From: Candidatus Omnitrophota bacterium
GTDB lineage: Bacteria > Omnitrophota > Omnitrophia > Omnitrophales > Aquincolibacteriaceae
Reading direction: 5' to 3'
Assembly (NCBI GenBank): GCA_016930235.1
Contig: JAFGHI010000063.1
Span: 799 to 64,798 of the forward strand
Length of the DNA: 64,000 bases
Shown here: positions 46,917 to 58,327 of the stretch, one piece after another
Position numbering within the stretch: position 1 is the first letter of the stretch
Layout of the letters: each line of letters begins with the position of its first letter
The notes under the pieces: model-generated
The model's database searches: none
What the model was told of the DNA's origin: nothing
Seen by the model: the letters and a program-made list of their open reading frames with translations, nothing else
Translations under genes and position numbers: made by a program

Positions 46917-49328
46917 ATGAATCATCTTTCTCGGCTTTTAACCAATTTATTAAAACCTTTAATTGAAATTCGCCCTGGCGAGCGCGCTAAAACGCTTGTC
47001 ATGTTCGTCTATTTCTTCCTGATTATCGCTTCGGTCTGGATCTTAAAACCCGTCAGGGACTCACTTTTCCTTGAAGAGCTCGGGGCAAAAAATCTTCGCT
47101 ATATTTACATTGCCGAAGCCGGTTTTATGGTTGCTATTGTTTGGGGGTTTTCGCAATTTGCCAGGAGGGTGACCCAAAAGGTTCTTTATACAGGAGTCTT
47201 ATCGTTTTATATCGTGTGCCTTTTATTTTTTTGGATTTTGTTTCATTGGAAAGTTCCCTATCTATCTTTCTTTTTCTATATCTGGGTTGCGTCTTATTCC
47301 ATTGCAATGACAACGTTATTCTTTACTTTGGCCAATGATATCTTTAATCCCCAAGAAGCGAGGCGTCTGTTTGGCCTTATTCTCAGCGGAGGGAGCATTG
47401 GAGGAGTTCTTGGAGGATTGATAACGGAAAAACTGGCTGTTTTGCTTCATACTGAGAATCTTTTACTGGTGGTTGCTGTTATTATTAGCGCGTGTTGCCT
47501 TTTAGTTGGGATGATGTGGAAACACATTTCTCCGACCATCGATCACGCACCTCTTCCTAATGATCCCCCTCAAGAAAACAAGGGTAAAGCTGAACAGACG
47601 GTCCCTTTCCCGTCCGCGAAGAAACTTTTTACTGGATCTTCTTATTTGATGATGCTGGCGGGCCTCGTCATGATCGTTAAGATATCTTCTGCTGTTGTGG
47701 ACAATCAATTTAAAGGTATCGTTGAAGCATCGATTATCGGACTTGATTCCCGGACAGCTTTTTTGGGAGGATTTTTTAAGTGGCTCAATGCAGCTTCCTT
47801 TTTTAGCCAACTGTTTTTGACAAGTTTGGCTTTGAGATATTTAGGGGTCGGAATTTCCCTCTGGATTTTGCCGGTAGGACTGGCCATCGGGTCTGTTTTT
47901 AGTTTCTTGAATCCTATTCTTTTGACTGGGGGGGCTATAAAACTTTTTGACGGCAGTGGAAATTATTCGATTCAACAAGCGTGTCGGGAAGTTCTTTATC
48001 TACCGGTTCCGAGCAAGGTTCGGTATAGGGTCAAGCCGGTTATCGACATGCTGGGATTTCGTATTGCGAAGGGGTTGGGGGGTCTTTATATTGCCATTTT
48101 TGCCCCATTGCTTGGATTAGCTAATGAAAGATTAAGCTTGCTCGTTCTTCTTTTAATTCCCTTTTGGTTCATTCTTGCTTGGAGAATGAAAAAAGGATAT
48201 TCAAAGCTTTTGAAGGAACGGCTTGTTAAGAAGGGCAAATTTGATCAAGCTGTAAAAGCGCAGAGAGCGACGGATGTCTTGAGTATTCTCCATGACGAAA
48301 AAGGTTTTCATGATATCAAAGCTTTCATGAATCATCGATCTTCTTATGCTCGAAAATTGGCGGCGGCTGCTTATTTAGCCTATGCAAAGGCATCTAAGGA
48401 TGTTGGGCCGGCCAGGATTTTTATCAATCAGATGATTCAGCAGGAGGCATTTGACCAGGTTGAAGAGGCGGTCAATCAAGAGGGTTTGTTTGAGCGGGAT
48501 ATCTGTTTCTTGCAAGAATTGCTACAAGGAGAGGTGAAGGAAAAAGTTCCTAATGATGCAACATTCCGGGATTATTTGGACCGACATTCAGAAAGCGTTT
48601 TGTTGAAATTGGGAACAATTTTAAGGGATCCGGATTTGGGGTTGGCTATCAAGAGAAGAGCGGTTAGGCTAACAGAGATGATTCCCAAACAAGAATCGGT
48701 CGATCTTTTGCTTCACACACTTGCCAGCGCACAAGAGCATGCTTTCCGTTTCGTCATGATTAAAGCGCTGAATCGTTTGCAGACGCAAGACAAGACTTTG
48801 CGAATGAACCGATTTCTGATTAAAAGTGAGATTTCGAGAGAGGCAAAGATTCATGATAAAATTCAAAAAATCAGGTATTTTTACCATCAGCAACCATCCG
48901 TTACCGGTTCGGAAGATTATTTGGAAGTAGCGCTTAAGGCGATTTTGGAGGAGAGCCTTGAAAGGATTTTTTATTATCTTAATCTTTTGTATCCCGAGGA
49001 AGGGATTTTGGTCATTTTTGAGAGGATTCAGGAATATGCCGAAGATGATCCAGTTCGAGCGCATGCAGTTGAGCTTCTGAGCAATACTGTCGAGACAGAT
49101 CTTCATATTATTATTCACAAAATTTTGGATGGGCGAAAACTTCTGAAGGTAAAAGAAAGAGATATTATCGAAATTCTGAAAAATTTTGCAGGATCCCAAG
49201 ACCGTTGGTTTTCCATCACGAGTTACTTTTTGCTCTCAGGTCTTGGACTGACACAAAAATGGCCTGAACTAGCAGAGCTCGAAATTTTTCAGGATCTTGA
49301 TAGCAACCCATTTAAAGCAGAAACTTGA
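46917..49328 (+). CDS. TLC-family (ATP/ADP-translocase-like, Npt-type) 12-TM transporter fused to a C-terminal roughly 330-aa HEAT-like alpha-helical repeat domain
   Basis: The N-terminus LKPLIEIRPGERAKTLVMFVYFFLIIASVWILKPVRDSLF matches the TLC signature. The C-terminal segments DPDLGLAIKRRAVRL and DPVRAHAVELLSN are HEAT-like. The start abuts the yraN stop (TAAATG). Confidence 0.7.
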   Translation: MNHLSRLLTNLLKPLIEIRPGERAKTLVMFVYFFLIIASVWILKPVRDSLFLEELGAKNLRYIYIAEAGFMVAIVWGFSQFARRVTQKVLYTGVLSFYIVCLLFFWILFHWKVPYLSFFFYIWVASYSIAMTTLFFTLANDIFNPQEARRLFGLILSGGSIGGVLGGLITEKLAVLLHTENLLLVVAVIISACCLLVGMMWKHISPTIDHAPLPNDPPQENKGKAEQTVPFPSAKKLFTGSSYLMMLAGLVMIVKISSAVVDNQFKGIVEASIIGLDSRTAFLGGFFKWLNAASFFSQLFLTSLALRYLGVGISLWILPVGLAIGSVFSFLNPILLTGGAIKLFDGSGNYSIQQACREVLYLPVPSKVRYRVKPVIDMLGFRIAKGLGGLYIAIFAPLLGLANERLSLLVLLLIPFWFILAWRMKKGYSKLLKERLVKKGKFDQAVKAQRATDVLSILHDEKGFHDIKAFMNHRSSYARKLAAAAYLAYAKASKDVGPARIFINQMIQQEAFDQVEEAVNQEGLFERDICFLQELLQGEVKEKVPNDATFRDYLDRHSESVLLKLGTILRDPDLGLAIKRRAVRLTEMIPKQESVDLLLHTLASAQEHAFRFVMIKALNRLQTQDKTLRMNRFLIKSEISREAKIHDKIQKIRYFYHQQPSVTGSEDYLEVALKAILEESLERIFYYLNLLYPEEGILVIFERIQEYAEDDPVRAHAVELLSNTVETDLHIIIHKILDGRKLLKVKERDIIEILKNFAGSQDRWFSITSYFLLSGLGLTQKWPELAELEIFQDLDSNPFKAET

Positions 49329-49409: not shown

Positions 49410-49438
49410 TTGTCGAAAATTAATCAACAGGGTATAAT
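49410..49438 (+). promoter_or_regulatory. Sigma70-type promoter TTGTCG-17-TATAAT
   Basis: TTGTCG at 49410-49415 and TATAAT at 49433-49438 lie upstream of the Omp85-like gene. Confidence 0.55.
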
Positions 49439-49454
49439 GTTTTTACTTTAACAG

Positions 49455-50798
49455 ATGGGGCGTATGAAACATTGCAGAACTTCTTTTTATAAAGTAGCTT
49501 TCTTTTTCCTCGGCGTTTTGTTTATTGCCAGTCCTCTTTTTGCCCAAGATCTCTCCTATGATCGGTATACGGAAACTCTGCGGGAGCCTGAAGCGCCCTC
49601 TCGGGTCGGGCGGAGTATTGCTCATTTCCTTGTTTATCCGTTTGAAATTATTCGCTATGGGACGGATAAGACCTTGGTAGCAATCGAAAAGCATCACATT
49701 GACAAAAAAGTGAAATGGATTTATGAAAAAATTCAAAGCTATGGCATTAGTCCGCATCTTAATTTTGTAAGTATGAGCAATCGCTCATATGGAGCCGACA
49801 TCGATTTTATACGGCTCGTTCAGAAGAAAGAGTATTTGCCCGATTCGACATTGAGTGGGTGGGTTCGGTGGGCTGAGGACGGATATTTTCGAGCAGGAGG
49901 AAAGGTCGGATGGAGCCTCATCAAGGGGACTGGTCTTAGGACTTTCGGTATTGCCAATTATGAAAATCGTCACGAGGAACATTTTTACGGGGTAGGCCCC
50001 CATTCAAGTGCAGGGGATGGAGCCGTTTTCTCATGGGAAGAAACGAAGTTGGAATATCAGTTAGGATACAGCAAGACTCCGGAATGGGGCATTGACGGGA
50101 AATTTAGTTATCGTAATGTGAATATCTCAGGCGGGCGGGATGGTGGTAGGGGGCAAATCGGAGAAATTCCCACTTTCAGTGAAGAAAGGATACCGGGTTT
50201 TCATGGGGATTCCTTTTTAACCTGGAAGCTTGAAGTGATTCATGATACGCGTAATCAAAAAGAAAATTCCACGATAGGGGGGATGCAGCGATTCGGTTTC
50301 AGCTTTAACGAGGGATTAAATAGTTCGCTGGCGCGTTTTTTTCGATATGAAACAGAAGTGAGTCATTATTTTCGCCTGGGGGCCGACCGGAGGGTTTTAG
50401 CCTTTCATTTCTATGGGGAACACAATGATGAAGTAAACAACGGGCAGGTACCTTTCCACCAAATGGCAAAATTAGGCGGGTACGGAACTAGCCCGCATAT
50501 GAGTCATACGCTACGAGGCTATGATTTTAACCGTTTTTTTGATGAGAGCGCCTTGCTTTTCAATATAGAATACCGTTATACAATATGGGAATATCGTGAT
50601 TATAAATTAGATACGGTCTTTTTCTGGGACGAAGGCCAGGTTTTTGGCGAATTCAGTGAATTTCAGTTAAGTGATTTCAGGGAATCTTACGGAATAGGGT
50701 TCCGATTAAGCGTTGCGAATGTCATGTTTTTAGCTCTTGAAGTTGCACATGGAGATGAGGGTACCAATCTATATGTTAAAGGAAGCAGCCCATTTTAA
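49455..50798 (+). CDS. Omp85-superfamily outer-membrane beta-barrel protein (short N-terminal region, at most one POTRA)
   Basis: A signal peptide is followed by a C-terminal barrel with the loop-6 RGY motif (TLRGYDFNRFF). Strand signatures alternate aromatic residues and the protein ends in F. Confidence 0.6.
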   Translation: MGRMKHCRTSFYKVAFFFLGVLFIASPLFAQDLSYDRYTETLREPEAPSRVGRSIAHFLVYPFEIIRYGTDKTLVAIEKHHIDKKVKWIYEKIQSYGISPHLNFVSMSNRSYGADIDFIRLVQKKEYLPDSTLSGWVRWAEDGYFRAGGKVGWSLIKGTGLRTFGIANYENRHEEHFYGVGPHSSAGDGAVFSWEETKLEYQLGYSKTPEWGIDGKFSYRNVNISGGRDGGRGQIGEIPTFSEERIPGFHGDSFLTWKLEVIHDTRNQKENSTIGGMQRFGFSFNEGLNSSLARFFRYETEVSHYFRLGADRRVLAFHFYGEHNDEVNNGQVPFHQMAKLGGYGTSPHMSHTLRGYDFNRFFDESALLFNIEYRYTIWEYRDYKLDTVFFWDEGQVFGEFSEFQLSDFRESYGIGFRLSVANVMFLALEVAHGDEGTNLYVKGSSPF

Positions 50799-52413
50799 GA
50801 TATTTGCCTGGTTTGTAATCGCAGGGTTAGCGTTATTCCCGAATATGGGGAACGCTGACCAAGCAGCAAACTATAAGAAAAACGATGTCGGTCTTTATCG
50901 GGACGTTTTTGATCAGAATATCTATTATGAAGGGACAAATTTTCTTCATTTAGAACGGCTCTATCGGGCCATTTTTAGGAAAAAGAGCCGATCTGCCAAC
51001 ATTAATATCTTTGACGAGGTTCCCGACTCAAACTTTTTCACAAATCGCCATGCCCGAACGCGGTTGAATGCAAGGGAGCTTGAAGAGGGCTTCCGACAGG
51101 GGGCTCCTCCGAGTTCGAACGGGAAACTTACTGTGACGAAGGGGAAATTTGAAGGGTTGCATCCTGGATTTTATGTTCGAGATGACAAAGGAGATGAATA
51201 TCTTTTGAAGTTTGATCCGCTTGATTATTTTGAGCTGGCGACGGGCGCAGAAACAGTCGCGAATCGATTTTTGTATGCCATTGGGTATAACGTTCCCCAA
51301 TATGATGTTTTCTACTTCAACGCAGACCGTTTGGTCCCCGCTCCTGAAGCAACAACCGTGGATGATACAGGTTTTTGCAAGAAGTTAGATCAGGCAAAAT
51401 TGGAAGAATATCTTCTTTATTTACCACAGGGTGACGATGGCAAATATCGTGCGGCGGCCAGCAACCTTTTGAAGGGCGAAAATCTTGGAGGGTTTAGTTT
51501 CGCCGGCCGGCGGAAAGATGACCGTGAAGATATTTATGATCATCAGGATCGGCGTGAGATTCGAGCGCTTCGGGTATTTTCCTCCTGGATCAATAATAAT
51601 GATGTTCGAGAAGGGAACACCCTTGATGTCCTCGTTGAAGAAAATGGGCGGTCTTTTATTAAACATTATTTAATTGATTTTAACGCATCGTTGGGTGCGG
51701 GTTCAGACGGGGCAAAACCGCCGATGTTTACCCATGAATATATGATTGACTATGGAGAAGCAACAAAAGCTTTTTTGGGCCTGGGTTTATGGCAGAAACC
51801 GTGGCAAAAGCGGTGGCAAGAAGCGGGTGAGACTTTTTCGCAATCTCCAGCCGTTGGTTATTTTGATAATCGTTATTTTGACCCAAGTAAGTATAAGACA
51901 CAATTACCTTATTTTGCTTTCAAAGATTTAACCCGCGCGGATGGTTTTTGGGCAGCAAGAATTATTATGTCCTTCACCGATGATGACATCCGCGCGATGG
52001 TTAAGGCGGGGGAATATAGTGAACCAGAAGATGCTGACTATATTGCCCAAACCCTGATTGAAAGAAGAGATATTATTGGGCGCTATTGGTTTAGTGAATC
52101 AAACCCACTTGATAAGTTTTCCATGACAGGAGATGCCCTGACTTTCAATAACCTAGCTGTTGATTACGGGTTCGAATCGAAAGAGGGGATCACTTATCAT
52201 GTTAAAATCATTGAGAAGATTAAGAAGCGGGGCAAAGAGCTAGAAACCATTCAAATTAGCCAGCCGTCTGTAGACCTTGGGAAATGGCTTTCCGAGGCGG
52301 GTTCCTTAGATATCTTAATCAAAACTGAATGGGCTCAACAAGGCGAACTAAGCCCGATGGTTTTGGTTGAAATTAGGCAAGGAAAAGTTGCCGGCATTAT
52401 CCACGAAGATTAA
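50773..52413 (+). CDS. Secreted hypothetical protein with a protein-kinase-like (PKL) fold signature
   Basis: The signal peptide is MLKEAAHFKIFAWFVIAGLALFPNMGNA. A G-loop-like GKFEGLHPG is followed by a lysine in YLLKF. A catalytic-loop-like NNDVREGN (D-x4-N) and a DFG-like LIDFNAS lie 25 residues apart. The start lies inside the Omp85 gene's 3' end. Confidence 0.45.
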   Translation: MLKEAAHFKIFAWFVIAGLALFPNMGNADQAANYKKNDVGLYRDVFDQNIYYEGTNFLHLERLYRAIFRKKSRSANINIFDEVPDSNFFTNRHARTRLNARELEEGFRQGAPPSSNGKLTVTKGKFEGLHPGFYVRDDKGDEYLLKFDPLDYFELATGAETVANRFLYAIGYNVPQYDVFYFNADRLVPAPEATTVDDTGFCKKLDQAKLEEYLLYLPQGDDGKYRAAASNLLKGENLGGFSFAGRRKDDREDIYDHQDRREIRALRVFSSWINNNDVREGNTLDVLVEENGRSFIKHYLIDFNASLGAGSDGAKPPMFTHEYMIDYGEATKAFLGLGLWQKPWQKRWQEAGETFSQSPAVGYFDNRYFDPSKYKTQLPYFAFKDLTRADGFWAARIIMSFTDDDIRAMVKAGEYSEPEDADYIAQTLIERRDIIGRYWFSESNPLDKFSMTGDALTFNNLAVDYGFESKEGITYHVKIIEKIKKRGKELETIQISQPSVDLGKWLSEAGSLDILIKTEWAQQGELSPMVLVEIRQGKVAGIIHED

Positions 52414-52600: not shown

Positions 52601-53647
52601 GTGCGAGAGATATTGCTCGAATGTTTGATATGCCCAAGATGTGGGAAGCAAGAATGGAAAATTCAGGTAGACTCAAAGAGTGAGTATGAGATCCGAGAAG
52701 GAATCCTGTCATGCCTTTCTTGTGGGCGGCAGAATACTATTACCAAGGGTATTGTGGATTGCCTTGGCGAACTTTCTTTGGAAGTAGCTCATGAGAAAAA
52801 TCACGCCGAATCCCTTGGATACTTGGTTACCCCCGAAGGAGAAAGTTGTGTAATCAACGAGGAAACAATCCAATGTTTTCGAAATCTCTTCTTATCGCTT
52901 CCGGCAGGGGATGGAAGTGCTTATTTTAAGCCGGGTGGCAGTTTTGACAATCAGGCTGGCAACGCGGAGCGGTTTTTTAAAACTCTTGATTTGCTTAATC
53001 TGACCGGGGAAGAAAAAATTTTGGAGGTTGGAGCAAGTTTTGGGTGGGGAGCATGGCGATTTGCTCAGCGAGGATGTCAGGTTGTTGCTCTTGATGTGAC
53101 AAATTATTTACAGGCTGCCGATCTTTATTTTGATAAAGATGGGTGTTACTTTGATCGAGTCATGGCTGATATGAACGCACTCCCTTTTTCGGACGGAAGT
53201 TTTGATATCATTTTTTCTCATTCCGTGATTCATCATTGCAAGAATATTGAAAATTTATTCTGCGAGTTTTATCGAGTTCTCCGACCTGGAGGGAGAGTTG
53301 TTGCACTTCATGAATGTGCTTTCGGAATTTTTGAGGACAAATCAGGTAAAGCGTTAAAAAAAGCGATCGATGAAGGTTTTAATGAAAATGCCTATACTCT
53401 TTGGGAGTGGTGGCAGGGGGCAAGACGGGGAGGATTTTTAAATATACGATTTCATTTCTTTTCTCTTGTTGATGATTATATCCACCGAAAAAAAATTCGC
53501 GGCTCAGGAATGACAGGCAAACTACGATTTGCTTATTGGATCAAAGCTCGTCCTTTCTTAAATCGATTGATTAATCTTCTGAGTATTATCCCACGAATTA
53601 TATTAAGACCTAAAGCCTGGATGATGATGGCTAGCCGGTCGAAATAA
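52601..53647 (+). CDS. Class I SAM-dependent methyltransferase with N-terminal tandem zinc-ribbon (Trm112-like) domain
   Basis: CPRCG and CLSCG ribbons are present, followed by motif I ILEVGASFGWGA and the Methyltransf_11-like LPFSDGSFDIIFSHSVIHH. The start is GTG with an AAGGAG RBS. Confidence 0.7.
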   Translation: MREILLECLICPRCGKQEWKIQVDSKSEYEIREGILSCLSCGRQNTITKGIVDCLGELSLEVAHEKNHAESLGYLVTPEGESCVINEETIQCFRNLFLSLPAGDGSAYFKPGGSFDNQAGNAERFFKTLDLLNLTGEEKILEVGASFGWGAWRFAQRGCQVVALDVTNYLQAADLYFDKDGCYFDRVMADMNALPFSDGSFDIIFSHSVIHHCKNIENLFCEFYRVLRPGGRVVALHECAFGIFEDKSGKALKKAIDEGFNENAYTLWEWWQGARRGGFLNIRFHFFSLVDDYIHRKKIRGSGMTGKLRFAYWIKARPFLNRLINLLSIIPRIILRPKAWMMMASRSK

Positions 53648-54417: not shown

Positions 54418-54786
54418 ATGTGTAAGATTAAACCATTTATAGCAATTTGCTCTTTGCTAGGGCTGATGATTGTTTTCTCTCTGACAGCGGTATCTGCGTG
54501 GGCGTTTAAGAATAATCCTCCAGGACCGAAAGGTGGGAAAGGGACAAACTGGAATAATCCCCCTGGCCCGGAAGGAGGGCCGGGAGCAAGCCCTAAAGAA
54601 GTCGATTCAAATAAATGGTGGCAGTCCAAGGTGGCGTATCATAAGTTGGAAAGGGAAGAACTTAGGACTAAGTTAGAAAAGCTGAAAGAATATCGGTCTG
54701 AATTAATGGCTAGCGGGGCCGATGGAGATCTCATCGCAGAAATTAATGATGAAATCGAAGACGTTGAAGAAGCCTTATTCCGCTAA
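54418..54786 (+). CDS. Small exported protein with a tandem NNPPGP(K/E)GG repeat and a C-terminal coiled coil
   Basis: A signal peptide is followed by two direct repeats and a charged helical tail (KLEREELRTKLEKLKEYRSEL). Confidence 0.5.
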   Translation: MCKIKPFIAICSLLGLMIVFSLTAVSAWAFKNNPPGPKGGKGTNWNNPPGPEGGPGASPKEVDSNKWWQSKVAYHKLEREELRTKLEKLKEYRSELMASGADGDLIAEINDEIEDVEEALFR

Positions 54787-56818: not shown

Positions 56819-58327
56819 ATGAGTAATTCGAAACTTTTATTATCAGATATGAGCGGGATTCGAGGGATATCGGTGCGATATCTTTCTGCTTACGCGAAAT
56901 CCCAAGGGGTGGAGACAGAATTGCTTTTCCCTTTGATTTTAGGACGCGGATTCGAGGATTTACCTCGTTTGAAGGTTGAGCAACAACAGGCTGTGCTTGA
57001 TTTTCTTAGAACCCACGGGGTAACTCATTTTGGATGCTATTTAATGACAGGTCATTTAAGGGCTTTCAAAGAACTTGTCGAGTTTATCAGAAGTCGCGGA
57101 TGGCAGGGATGTATCATCGCGGGAGGTGTGCATCCTACAGTTTGCTGCGAAGAATCGTTGATGGACGGTGTCGATTATGTAGTCATGGGACCTGGTGAAA
57201 AATCGCTAGTTGATATTGTTAATGGGATGGGTTTAAGCCGTATTAGTGGGTTGGTATACAGAGAAAACGGTAGGATCAAAATCAATCAAGTTGCCGAAGA
57301 CGCTTATGTCGATTTGAATCTTCTCCCATTCCCTGATTACGATTTTAAGACTCATTATGTTATTCGTAATAAAGGAATTGAACTGTTAACGATTAAGGTT
57401 TACCGAGAACTAGAGACATGGAAGGGCATTTATTATTTTTTAACAACCACAAGAGGATGCCCCTATCATTGCTCTTATTGCGTGAATCTTAATCGGAAGC
57501 ATCTTCAACGTGCTTCCATTGACCGCGTGATAGAGGAATTGCATTCCGCCAAGAAGCGAATGCCTTTTATTAAAGGATGTAACATTCAAGACGATTCTTT
57601 TTTTATTGGTTCGGATGAATGGATAAATGAGTTTTGTCGACGATTCAAAAAAGAGTTTAATTGGCCGTTCATTGCTCGCGTCATGCCTCGATTTGCAACC
57701 GATAAGCGTTTGAGAATGATGAAAGAAAGCGGATTAAAATATGTATCTGTAGGATTGCAGGGATCTGAAAGGATGAACCGTGAGATTTATGATCGGCATG
57801 AGACCAATAAATCCTTTGTCGATGCATGTCATATAATGAATAAACTAGGCATCCATTATGTTGTTGATGTCATATTAGATAACGCCTATGAAGCGGAAGA
57901 AGATTTAAAAGAAATTGCGAGGGTTTTAAACAGTATCCCGAGGCCATTTAAAGTCTTAGCCTATGGGATGACCCCTTTCCCAGGGACAAGTTTTTATCAA
58001 CGAGTTGTAAGAGATGGGTTGTTAGAGAGGTTTGCGGCAGATGCCTATGAATCGATGTTCACCCCAACGCGGCCCGGCGCTTATGAAACACCGACTTATT
58101 GGAGATTACTCATCTCGAAAGTAATCCCTTTGTATCGGAATAAAGTCGTGAATCAATTAATAGAGTCGGGGCCTAATAATGAAAGGGCTGTTCATCAATT
58201 AGAGAGTATTTGTAAAAATGCTGAAAGAAAAATTGTTCTAGCAGAAGGATTAAGGCGGGTGTGGCCTGAGGGCTTTGGTTTTGGGTTAAGTTTCTACAAG
58301 GCTCTAATGCGGTGGTGGACCCACTGA
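56819..58327 (+). CDS. B12-binding-domain radical SAM protein (class B rSAM-like)
   Basis: An N-terminal Rossmann-like B12-binding region (IIAGGVHPTV) is followed by the CxxxCxxC cluster motif TTRGCPYHCSYC. Confidence 0.8.
   Translation: MSNSKLLLSDMSGIRGISVRYLSAYAKSQGVETELLFPLILGRGFEDLPRLKVEQQQAVLDFLRTHGVTHFGCYLMTGHLRAFKELVEFIRSRGWQGCIIAGGVHPTVCCEESLMDGVDYVVMGPGEKSLVDIVNGMGLSRISGLVYRENGRIKINQVAEDAYVDLNLLPFPDYDFKTHYVIRNKGIELLTIKVYRELETWKGIYYFLTTTRGCPYHCSYCVNLNRKHLQRASIDRVIEELHSAKKRMPFIKGCNIQDDSFFIGSDEWINEFCRRFKKEFNWPFIARVMPRFATDKRLRMMKESGLKYVSVGLQGSERMNREIYDRHETNKSFVDACHIMNKLGIHYVVDVILDNAYEAEEDLKEIARVLNSIPRPFKVLAYGMTPFPGTSFYQRVVRDGLLERFAADAYESMFTPTRPGAYETPTYWRLLISKVIPLYRNKVVNQLIESGPNNERAVHQLESICKNAERKIVLAEGLRRVWPEGFGFGLSFYKALMRWWTH

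Follow-up and report, generated by a model that had tools for sequence, protein, structure and literature searches.

An Omp85 barrel gene almost obligately paired with a gene for an exported protein of predicted kinase fold, with a recurring link to nucleotide transporters

What might an outer-membrane barrel and an exported kinase-like protein do together in the cell envelope? The question is raised by two overlapping open reading frames (ORF1 and ORF2) in a 64,000-nucleotide stretch of a Candidatus Omnitrophota genome (contig JAFGHI010000063.1), the whole of which we call the window. A sequence-only reading of this DNA had taken them for an Omp85-type barrel and its secreted cargo, exported in a two-partner-like manner. 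ORF1 is a POTRA-less, BamA/TamA-like Omp85 barrel of the outer membrane, and ORF2 is a Sec-exported protein that is predicted from its model to hold a complete atypical protein-kinase-like catalytic core, followed by an FN3-like domain. Adjacency of the genes is near-obligate across phyla, and the pair duplicates and diverges as one. Our preferred reading, held tentatively and with slightly less than even confidence, is that ORF2 would be a kinase which stays in the envelope, docks to the barrel and receives its ATP from a nucleotide exchanger of the NTT-HEAT type (a nucleotide transporter, NTT, with a HEAT region), a homologue of which is encoded next to the pair. The combination of Omp85 and kinase-like genes, and its link to NTT-HEAT transporters, are undescribed so far.

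The pair and its junction are laid out as follows.
49455-50798, + strand: POTRA-less 'noNterm'-type Omp85 outer-membrane barrel, 447 aa (ORF1)
50773-52413, + strand: exported protein of predicted protein-kinase-like fold, 546 aa (ORF2)
50773-50798, + strand: 26-nt overlap of the 3' end of the Omp85 gene with the start of the kinase-like gene
50751-50761, + strand: Shine-Dalgarno-like GGAGATGAGGG, within the 3' end of the Omp85 gene and 11 nt upstream of the ORF2 ATG

Are the two genes a genuine pair? Linkage was judged in 91 non-redundant loci, the window included, 87 of which have enough upstream DNA for the purpose; the set, which was gathered with patterns from the window's own clade, is biased to Omnitrophota, and a dozen loci stand behind the counts outside that phylum. 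In 85 of the 87 informative loci, which span several phyla, the gene immediately upstream on the same strand codes for an Omp85 homologue, and the adjacency is kept in distant members with unrelated neighbourhoods (Acidobacteriota, Zixibacteria, Calditrichaceae and unclassified phyla). The overlap is identical, at 26 nt, in 28 of 65 loci, and 36 of the 65 overlap to some extent; ORF2 is probably translationally coupled to ORF1. Here the sequence-only reading was right about the overlap and wrong about the length of the partner, which it gave as 530 aa instead of 546 (other in-frame starts lie at 50737, 50749 and 50755). Over 69 pairs, the identity matrices for the barrel and the kinase-like protein correlate with r=0.89. 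In genomes with two pairs, each partner sorts to the subgroup that matches its adjoining barrel (three pairs examined), and the pair thus duplicates as a unit.

Such paralogous pairs are present in several Omnitrophota genomes (L045/L050, L068/L077, L025/L063 and L013/L017), in one case on a single contig, and genomes with two pairs often have an NTT-HEAT gene at one copy and not at the other. The window itself was found to hold no second pair.

Does ORF2 have the features of a kinase? Those that bear on this are listed by position.
50773-50856, + strand: Sec signal peptide, ORF2 residues 1-28, with cleavage read from the sequence as ...GNA/DQ
51004-51051, + strand: NxFDEVPDSxFFTNRH, a family-specific N-terminal motif, residues 78-93
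51142-51168, + strand: Gly-rich-loop-like GKFEGLHPG, residues 124-132, between beta1 and beta2
51199-51216, + strand: strand beta3 YLLKFD with Lys146, the predicted ATP anchor, residues 143-148
51595-51618, + strand: predicted catalytic loop NNDVREGN (D277, R279, N282), residues 275-282
51673-51684, + strand: predicted Mg-binding IDFN (D302), residues 301-304
52108-52410, + strand: C-terminal FN3/Ig-like beta-sandwich, residues 446-546

An AlphaFold2 (AF2) model of ORF2 on a 55-sequence alignment has a predicted local distance difference test score (pLDDT) of 88.4 and a predicted template modelling score (pTM) of 0.88, and gives a layout of signal peptide, N-terminal wrap, kinase core, helical region and FN3-like domain. 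In the model, beta1 is followed by the Gly-rich loop, beta2, beta3 (K146), alphaC (E160), a helix, the catalytic loop (D277...N282), a hairpin and D302-F-N, a predicted succession of secondary structure that is the kinase order. The model has the bilobal kinase fold of the protein-kinase-like superfamily. Its best Foldseek matches in the PDB (PI4KIIalpha, Fam20C, Fam20A and CtkA) are all kinase-type, and the nearest folds include the secreted kinases CtkA, Fam20C and CotH. The motif order that the sequence-only reading had described is also there, from GKFEGLHPG through YLLKFD and NNDVREGN to IDFN, with 25 residues between D277 and D302 and with the Lys, Asp, Asn and Asp conserved. All the sequence features that it listed were found at the positions it gave, and the two outcomes that it had named as damaging, a non-kinase fold and homologues conserving neither the K/D/DFN positions nor the adjacency, were both looked for and neither was found.

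Conservation was counted in 150 representatives of clusters at no more than 50% identity. K146 is kept in 133 of them, D148 in 143, D277 and N282 in 134 each, D302 in 141 and F303 in 132, while position 160 in alphaC is Glu in 109 and Asp in 25. Position 304 is Gly in 103 representatives, so the family carries a true DFG; together with His at position 275 in 95, and Arg (72) or Lys (44) at position 279, this gives the family consensus HxDx[KR]xxN...DFG, the pattern of eukaryotic-like kinases. GKFEGLHPG, which lies between strands 119-125 and 132-136, differs from GxGxxG, and its contact with nucleotide is putative; K125 is found in 122 representatives and G128 in 132, and P131 is conserved too. 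Strand beta3 covers residues 142-146 in the model. In NxFDEVPDSxFFTNRH, a region with pLDDT 92-95, residues N78, D81, E82, F89 and R92 are invariant in family alignment A1, and R92 is present in 138 of the 150; R92, H257, R261, R264, G308, D390 and W393 are further near-invariant residues specific to the family. As judged from sequence conservation, the motif set is more than chance. With their placement taken from the secondary structure of the model, the beta3 Lys, alphaC Glu, D-x4-N and DFG-type Asp stand in order and are conserved, and the model puts the protein in the protein-kinase-like superfamily at the level of fold and motif, with phosphotransfer as its predicted chemistry.

How close is ORF2 to kinases already known? 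It shares with the atypical kinases (CtkA/HipA, PI4KII/MavQ, Fam20C/Fam20B, CotH and actin-fragmin kinase) the bilobal fold, the beta3 Lys, the alphaC Glu, D-x4-N and the DFG-type Asp, but sequence identity to them is 9-15%. No Pfam or NCBIfam model reaches threshold in ORF2, and a Pfam scan at E≤1 left a single trace, HipA_2 (E=0.074, residues 257-308, 12.7 bits with a cut-off of 27); the TPS (two-partner secretion) haemagglutinin-type domain is therefore absent, as the sequence-only reading had noted. Sub-threshold matches to HipA_C occur in 28 of 55 family members and to HipA_2 in 21 (best E=3.8e-6), all below the gathering score, and there are no matches to Fam20C or CotH. Because the models of the CtkA-like HipA and HipA_2 families (PF07804 and PF20613) and of Fam20 and CotH are not reached, ORF2 stands outside those families as a relative at superfamily level only. 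Features unique to its family are the N-terminal wrap with NxFDEVPDSxFFTNRH, the C-terminal FN3 domain and two invariant residue pairs, R261/R264 and D390/W393; the family differs from these kinases also in its bacterial Sec or lipoprotein signal and its obligate pairing with Omp85. The only matches of ORF2 or the family profile in PDB sequences (legumin, Munc13 and armadillo repeats) fall on a 26-residue helix and were rejected as low-complexity or repeat artefacts.

An N-terminal hydrophobic segment is present in 133 of 133 full-length representatives and a lipobox-like Cys in 41 (~31%), from which it follows that the family is exported and in part lipid-anchored. It is also large. The ORF2 profile finds 3392 representative clusters (50%-identity clusters) among 1.84 billion representatives, 1005 of them at E≤1e-30, and with a profile built from distant members the count exceeds 7500 proteins at E≤1e-10. 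The sources include Omnitrophota, Zixibacteria, Calditrichota, KSB1, Latescibacterota, Poribacteria, Acidobacteriota and Gemmatimonadota; in every source the label is 'hypothetical', and the family has no Pfam or NCBIfam model. ORF2 itself is 100% identical to NCBI 'hypothetical protein JW893_09710' from a Candidatus Omnitrophica metagenome-assembled genome. A full-text literature search found no paper describing an Omp85/kinase-like pair, searches combining Omp85, kinase-like and periplasmic found nothing, and searches for a comparable kinase or ATP system in the periplasm were equally without result.

What kind of barrel, then, is paired with this protein? Three features of ORF1 bear on the answer.
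49602-49739, + strand: N-terminal periplasmic three-helix extension, ORF1 residues 50-95, which replaces POTRA domains
50511-50522, + strand: loop-6 LRGY lid-lock motif, residues 353-356
50622-50636, + strand: strand-13 FxDxG lid-lock motif, FWDEG, residues 390-394

ORF1 matches Pfam Omp85 (PF01103) with E=5.6e-14 and 52.8 bits (cut-off 24); NCBI calls it only 'BamA/TamA family outer membrane protein' and starts it at 49464, giving 444 aa. The barrel assignment of the sequence-only reading, made on the loop-6 RGY and a C-terminal Phe, is borne out by PF01103, by LRGY at 353-356 and by a C-terminus (...SSPF) that ends in F447. Among 48 homologues, R354, G394 and F447 are invariant, and F390 and D392 are kept in at least 90%. 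The AF2 model (pLDDT 86) has a signal helix, three helices at residues 50-95 and then 16 strands. No POTRA was found by Pfam scan or in the model, where three short helices are all that precedes the barrel, in agreement with the earlier remark that there is little N-terminal POTRA region; this puts ORF1 in the 'noNterm' class. BamA has five POTRA domains, TamA three, TpsB proteins two and Sam50 one, and ORF1, having none, is thus not a TpsB. The three helices (50-58, 61-79 and 82-95 in the model, with conserved P62, E78, K85 and W88) form a candidate docking site for the kinase-like partner. On structural comparison the modelled barrel scores 27.4 with BamA, 26.6 with TamA and 26.4 with Sam50, as against 21.5 with FhaC/CdiB, which places it nearer the insertase/anchor group than FhaC/CdiB. 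A phmmer search of ORF1 against PDB sequences found nothing.

Barrels of the noNterm Omp85 subfamily have 16 strands and are without POTRA or any other periplasmic domain, and none of those described has a known function (PMC4104836, PMC11358297). ORF1 shares with them the 16 strands, the L6 (L/V)RG(Y/F), the strand-13 FxDxG and the lack of POTRA (Heinz and Lithgow 2014, PMC4104836), but differs in its conserved three-helix N-terminal extension of ~45 residues and in its near-obligate kinase-fold partner gene, which is unreported for any noNterm Omp85. A Leptospira/Cytophagales subset is marked by DUF5982 over the first two strands (PMC11358297); a Pfam scan of ORF1 at E≤1 gave Omp85, one spurious Tom6 match and nothing else, so nothing indicates that it belongs to this subset.

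From where could an envelope kinase draw its nucleotide? A candidate source is encoded beside the pair.
46917-49328, + strand: 803-aa homologue of inner-membrane nucleotide transporters, of the NTT-HEAT type (TLC family), encoded immediately upstream of ORF1

Its product matches Pfam TLC (PF03219) with 61.4 bits (cut-off 21), has a weak C-terminal match to HEAT_2, and finds solved NTTs (AtNTT1 9j3j, E=3.8e-9; 9j3n, E=7.9e-8). A TLC homologue adjoins the pair in 43 of the 91 loci, distant high-GC genomes and complete genomes among them, and we propose the NTT-HEAT homologue as the third component of a module. There are at least four gene orders, each on one strand: NTT-(DUF5329)-Omp85-kinase, Omp85-kinase-NTT-(DUF5329), DUF5329-Omp85-kinase-NTT and Omp85-kinase-Metallophos-NTT-cNBD. 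DUF5329 (PF17263) proteins, of ~200 aa and often with a lipobox, are encoded with NTT-HEAT, Omp85 and kinase-like genes in 30-31 loci and several gene orders (for example L003 4080-4685 and L070 7810-8397); a literature search for DUF5329 found no paper. A metallophosphoesterase with a lipobox is part of the module at three loci outside Omnitrophota: L091 (8143-9189) and L093 (8764-10005), both unclassified, and L092 (8729-9979), from Latescibacterota. It lies directly between the kinase-like and NTT-HEAT genes in L092 and L093, where genes for cyclic-nucleotide (cNMP)-binding and response-regulator proteins follow, and between two TLC-family genes in L091. The gene content of these three loci fits a set of kinase, phosphoesterase and nucleotide transporter. 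No DUF5329 gene and no Metallophos gene was found in the window. At a further locus, from Calditrichaceae (L094 3048-8674), the pair directly follows mlaE-mlaF-mlaD on the same strand, which hints at a link to outer-membrane lipid homeostasis.

NTT-HEAT fusions are monophyletic and widespread in free-living bacteria, are often followed by a cNMP-binding gene and have no known function, and the NTTs that have been characterised are all importers (Major, Embley and Williams 2017, PMC5381601). The gene at 46917-49328 resembles these fusions in its TLC domain and C-terminal HEAT region, and L092 and L093 have the cNMP-binding gene after the transporter as that paper describes; PMC5381601 gives no link to Omp85, a kinase-like protein or the periplasm, however, and the linkage in 43 of 91 loci is a new context. 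Many Omnitrophota have been proposed to depend on hosts, and the literature has taken their ATP/ADP translocases for symbiosis factors or scavengers of host ATP (PMC10066038). That the NTT-HEAT gene here lies inside an envelope module shared by phyla regarded as free-living brings the host-ATP scavenger reading into question.

How would these parts work together? In the reading that we prefer, the barrel and the kinase-like protein would join in a stoichiometric complex at the periplasmic side of the outer membrane, with the kinase-like subunit taking the place of the POTRA domains, TamB or Bam lipoproteins of other Omp85 machines. It would act as an ATP-dependent phosphotransferase on an envelope substrate, for which an outer-membrane protein or lipoprotein in transit, an outer-membrane lipid and lipopolysaccharide are candidates. 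The NTT-HEAT protein would be an ATP/ADP counter-exchanger that passes ATP out and takes ADP in, supplying nucleotide that the periplasm otherwise lacks; if the cell makes its own ATP, a counter-exchanger would by mass action export ATP and retrieve ADP. In other phyla the module may be extended by a DUF5329 lipoprotein, by cNMP-binding or response-regulator genes and by an exported metallophosphoesterase lipoprotein, which is a candidate for the opposing phosphatase. The Fam20 and CotH kinases have their site of action outside the cytosol, and Fam20C relies on ATP that is brought into the Golgi lumen. In its working the pair would come closest to Omp85 machines whose periplasmic partner is encoded by a separate gene (TAM, BAM), and its predicted chemistry resembles that of Fam20C and CotH. 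TAM (TamA/TamB) and BAM likewise join an Omp85 barrel, in fact the closest structural matches to ORF1, to a separately encoded periplasmic or lipoprotein partner, but ORF1 has no POTRA, its partner has a predicted kinase fold and FN3 domain in place of a DUF490/AsmA-like beta-taco or a Bam lipoprotein, and the module is linked to a nucleotide transporter.

We prefer the envelope-kinase reading because it alone covers the conservation of the catalytic residues, the lipoprotein variants, the insertase-like barrel and the recurring nucleotide transporter and phosphoesterase. Several points count against it. The periplasm is generally held to lack ATP, and ATP export by an NTT is not known from any free-living bacterium. 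Kinase folds may also catalyse AMPylation or glutamylation, or be pseudoenzymes, and in the window's own clade the DFG Gly is replaced by Asn and the catalytic-loop His by Asn. The transporter is not adjacent in 48 of the 91 loci, its homologue here scores 40.3 bits with the NCBIfam NTP/NDP exchanger TIGR00769, far below the cut-off of 387, and two of the 87 informative loci (L057 and L092) have no Omp85 gene upstream. L057 is a low-coverage 2.6-kb contig with the order NTT fragments-DUF5329-kinase; L092, in the Latescibacterota genome CP070677.1, has a divergent TPR gene upstream of the kinase-like gene. A broader form of this reading is more doubtful, though a real possibility: that many phyla run a dedicated extracytoplasmic, ATP-fed phosphorylation system, in which NTT-HEAT would export ATP and retake ADP, a barrel-docked, Sec-exported, eukaryotic-like kinase would phosphorylate outer-membrane proteins or lipids, and in some phyla an exported metallophosphoesterase would reverse this under cNMP or two-component control.

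Could ORF2 instead be cargo of the barrel, as the sequence-only reading had it? The POTRA-less Omp85 would then thread the unfolded kinase-like protein to the surface or the medium, in a type V-like route, and the kinase would phosphorylate host, prey or matrix targets with extracellular or host ATP. Two-partner secretion (FhaC/FHA, CdiB/CdiA) likewise has an Omp85-superfamily barrel gene beside the gene for a Sec-exported partner in one operon, with stoichiometric coupling as in TpsB/TpsA, and the secreted kinases among the nearest folds, together with an FN3 domain of a kind typical of extracellular proteins, would suit an effector. Omp85 relatives also export globular enzymes, such as the patatin domain of PlpD (established knowledge; PMC4104836), and the proposed host dependence of many Omnitrophota, with translocases read as symbiosis factors, points the same way (PMC10066038). 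Against these stand the lack in ORF1 of the two POTRA domains, the element that recognises TpsA, and of a TPS (haemagglutination-activity) domain in ORF2; moreover, partners of the ORF2 family are predicted globular enzymes and often lipoproteins, where TpsA proteins are beta-helical fibres. The barrel is nearer BamA/TamA/Sam50 than FhaC/CdiB, and the ~31% of relatives with a lipobox would be membrane-tethered and not released. The repeated linkage to the inner-membrane NTT-HEAT transporter and to envelope lipoproteins points to action inside the envelope, a released effector would have no need of these inner-membrane and periplasmic components, and the module is found in phyla regarded as free-living (Acidobacteriota, Gemmatimonadota, Calditrichota). 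Export in a two-partner-like manner is thus not supported, and we consider this explanation unlikely.

Two further explanations keep ORF2 in the periplasm. It might be a non-catalytic accessory subunit, its kinase fold serving without nucleotide as a scaffold or chaperone, and so as the domain that handles substrates in the periplasm for an Omp85 insertase or lipid-transfer anchor devoid of POTRA. Its function would be analogous to that of POTRA, BamB-E or TamB, and its phosphotransfer chemistry would be vestigial. A barrel that has no periplasmic domain yet keeps the lid-lock motifs typical of working Omp85 machines, and that is closest to the insertases, would accord with this, as would the Calditrichaceae pair placed directly after mlaE-mlaF-mlaD (lipid trafficking), the established lack of periplasmic ATP and the replaced His and Gly in the window's clade. 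Pseudokinases normally lose their catalytic residues, however, whereas K146, D277, N282 and D302 are each kept in ~89-94% of the 150 representatives and most of these have the canonical HxDx[KR]xxN...DFG; the recurring nucleotide transporter, and the phosphoesterase of some phyla, are left unexplained. We find this rather improbable. Nucleotide scavenging across the envelope, in which the barrel would admit external nucleotides, the kinase fold would bind or re-phosphorylate them in the periplasm and NTT-HEAT would import them, has the attraction of giving each of three compartments a part (the barrel for the outer membrane, the nucleotide-binding fold for the periplasm and the nucleotide transporter for the inner membrane). 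It also agrees with the import shown for characterised NTTs (PMC5381601) and with the periplasmic metallophosphoesterase of some phyla, whose family includes nucleotidases and cyclic-nucleotide phosphodiesterases. But Omp85 barrels are not known as solute channels, their lumen being closed by loop 6, and the lid-lock motifs are kept in ORF1 and its homologues; any kinase would also call for a phosphate donor, itself in need of supply, and the pair has no adjacent transporter at about half of the loci. Scavenging is in our view very improbable. That the genes are unrelated neighbours, their adjacency and the kinase-like motifs both coincidental, is hardly credible: the promoter-like site upstream is no better than chance, which would suit coincidence, but the pair is kept in otherwise unrelated contexts over several phyla (85 of 87 loci), the overlap is conserved, the two proteins diverge together (r=0.89), paralogues duplicate as pairs and the fold searches are unanimous. 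Residue conservation, fold search, co-divergence and linkage effectively refute chance adjacency.

How the pair is transcribed in the window can be considered from its surroundings. On the + strand a housekeeping string (murA-rpsP-trmD-rplS-rnhB-yraN, with gene names as annotated at the syntenic locus L001) is followed by the TLC-type transporter gene and, at the end, by ORF1 and ORF2. One signal lies between transporter and barrel.
49410-49438, + strand: sigma-70-like hexamers TTGTCG-17-TATAAT, inside the 126 nt that separate the transporter gene from the Omp85 gene

The sequence-only reading had called this a dedicated promoter. The hexamers are there and score 10/12, but such sites are no commoner in the 8-kb region than in shuffles (14 observed, 14.1 expected), so that a promoter is plausible only by its position in the intergenic gap. 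There is no terminator-like site between the transporter and Omp85 genes, and read-through transcription is therefore equally possible. A riboswitch or leader upstream of ORF1 was rejected, the intergenic region not being unusually structured (z=-0.12). An Rfam scan of the whole window (1-64000) gave no family at or above its gathering score, and PADLOC gave no defence-system match for the transporter, ORF1 and ORF2 proteins.

Downstream of the pair, 52601-53647 (+) encodes a 348-aa protein in which an N-terminal Trm112-like zinc ribbon is fused to a class-I S-adenosylmethionine (SAM) methyltransferase (Methyltransf_11, E=3e-20). Homologues follow the pair in ~12 related loci, at times after a Prok-JAB gene, which this window lacks. 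The 122-aa ORF at 54418-54786 (+) carries no annotation; it has a signal-peptide-like N-terminus, a charged helical tail and a short duplicated Pro/Gly-rich motif (NNPPGPKGGKG ... NNPPGPEGGPG). A 502-aa ORF at 56819-58327 (+) contains CPYHCSYC, in agreement with CxxxCxxC, a pattern typical of radical-SAM enzymes.

What does the pair mean for the bacteria that carry it? It defines a large unannotated family of exported enzymes with a predicted kinase fold and an intact predicted active site, of more than 3,300 50%-identity clusters, and it supplies the first conserved partner for noNterm Omp85 barrels. It also connects family and barrels with the NTT-HEAT transporters, which have been a puzzle in free-living bacteria since 2017 (PMC5381601), and the linkage suggests for these a role other than the theft of host ATP (PMC10066038), namely the supply of ATP to the periplasm. 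Should the kinase be secreted instead, the pair would represent a new Omp85-dependent route of export, one that dispenses with both POTRA and TPS domains. If the envelope-kinase reading is true, ATP-dependent phosphorylation in the Gram-negative envelope would overturn the textbook view of an ATP-free periplasm and would add a new regulatory layer to outer-membrane biogenesis. The system would then be a bacterial counterpart of the Golgi Fam20C system, and it would give the orphan NTT-HEAT transporters of free-living bacteria a function.

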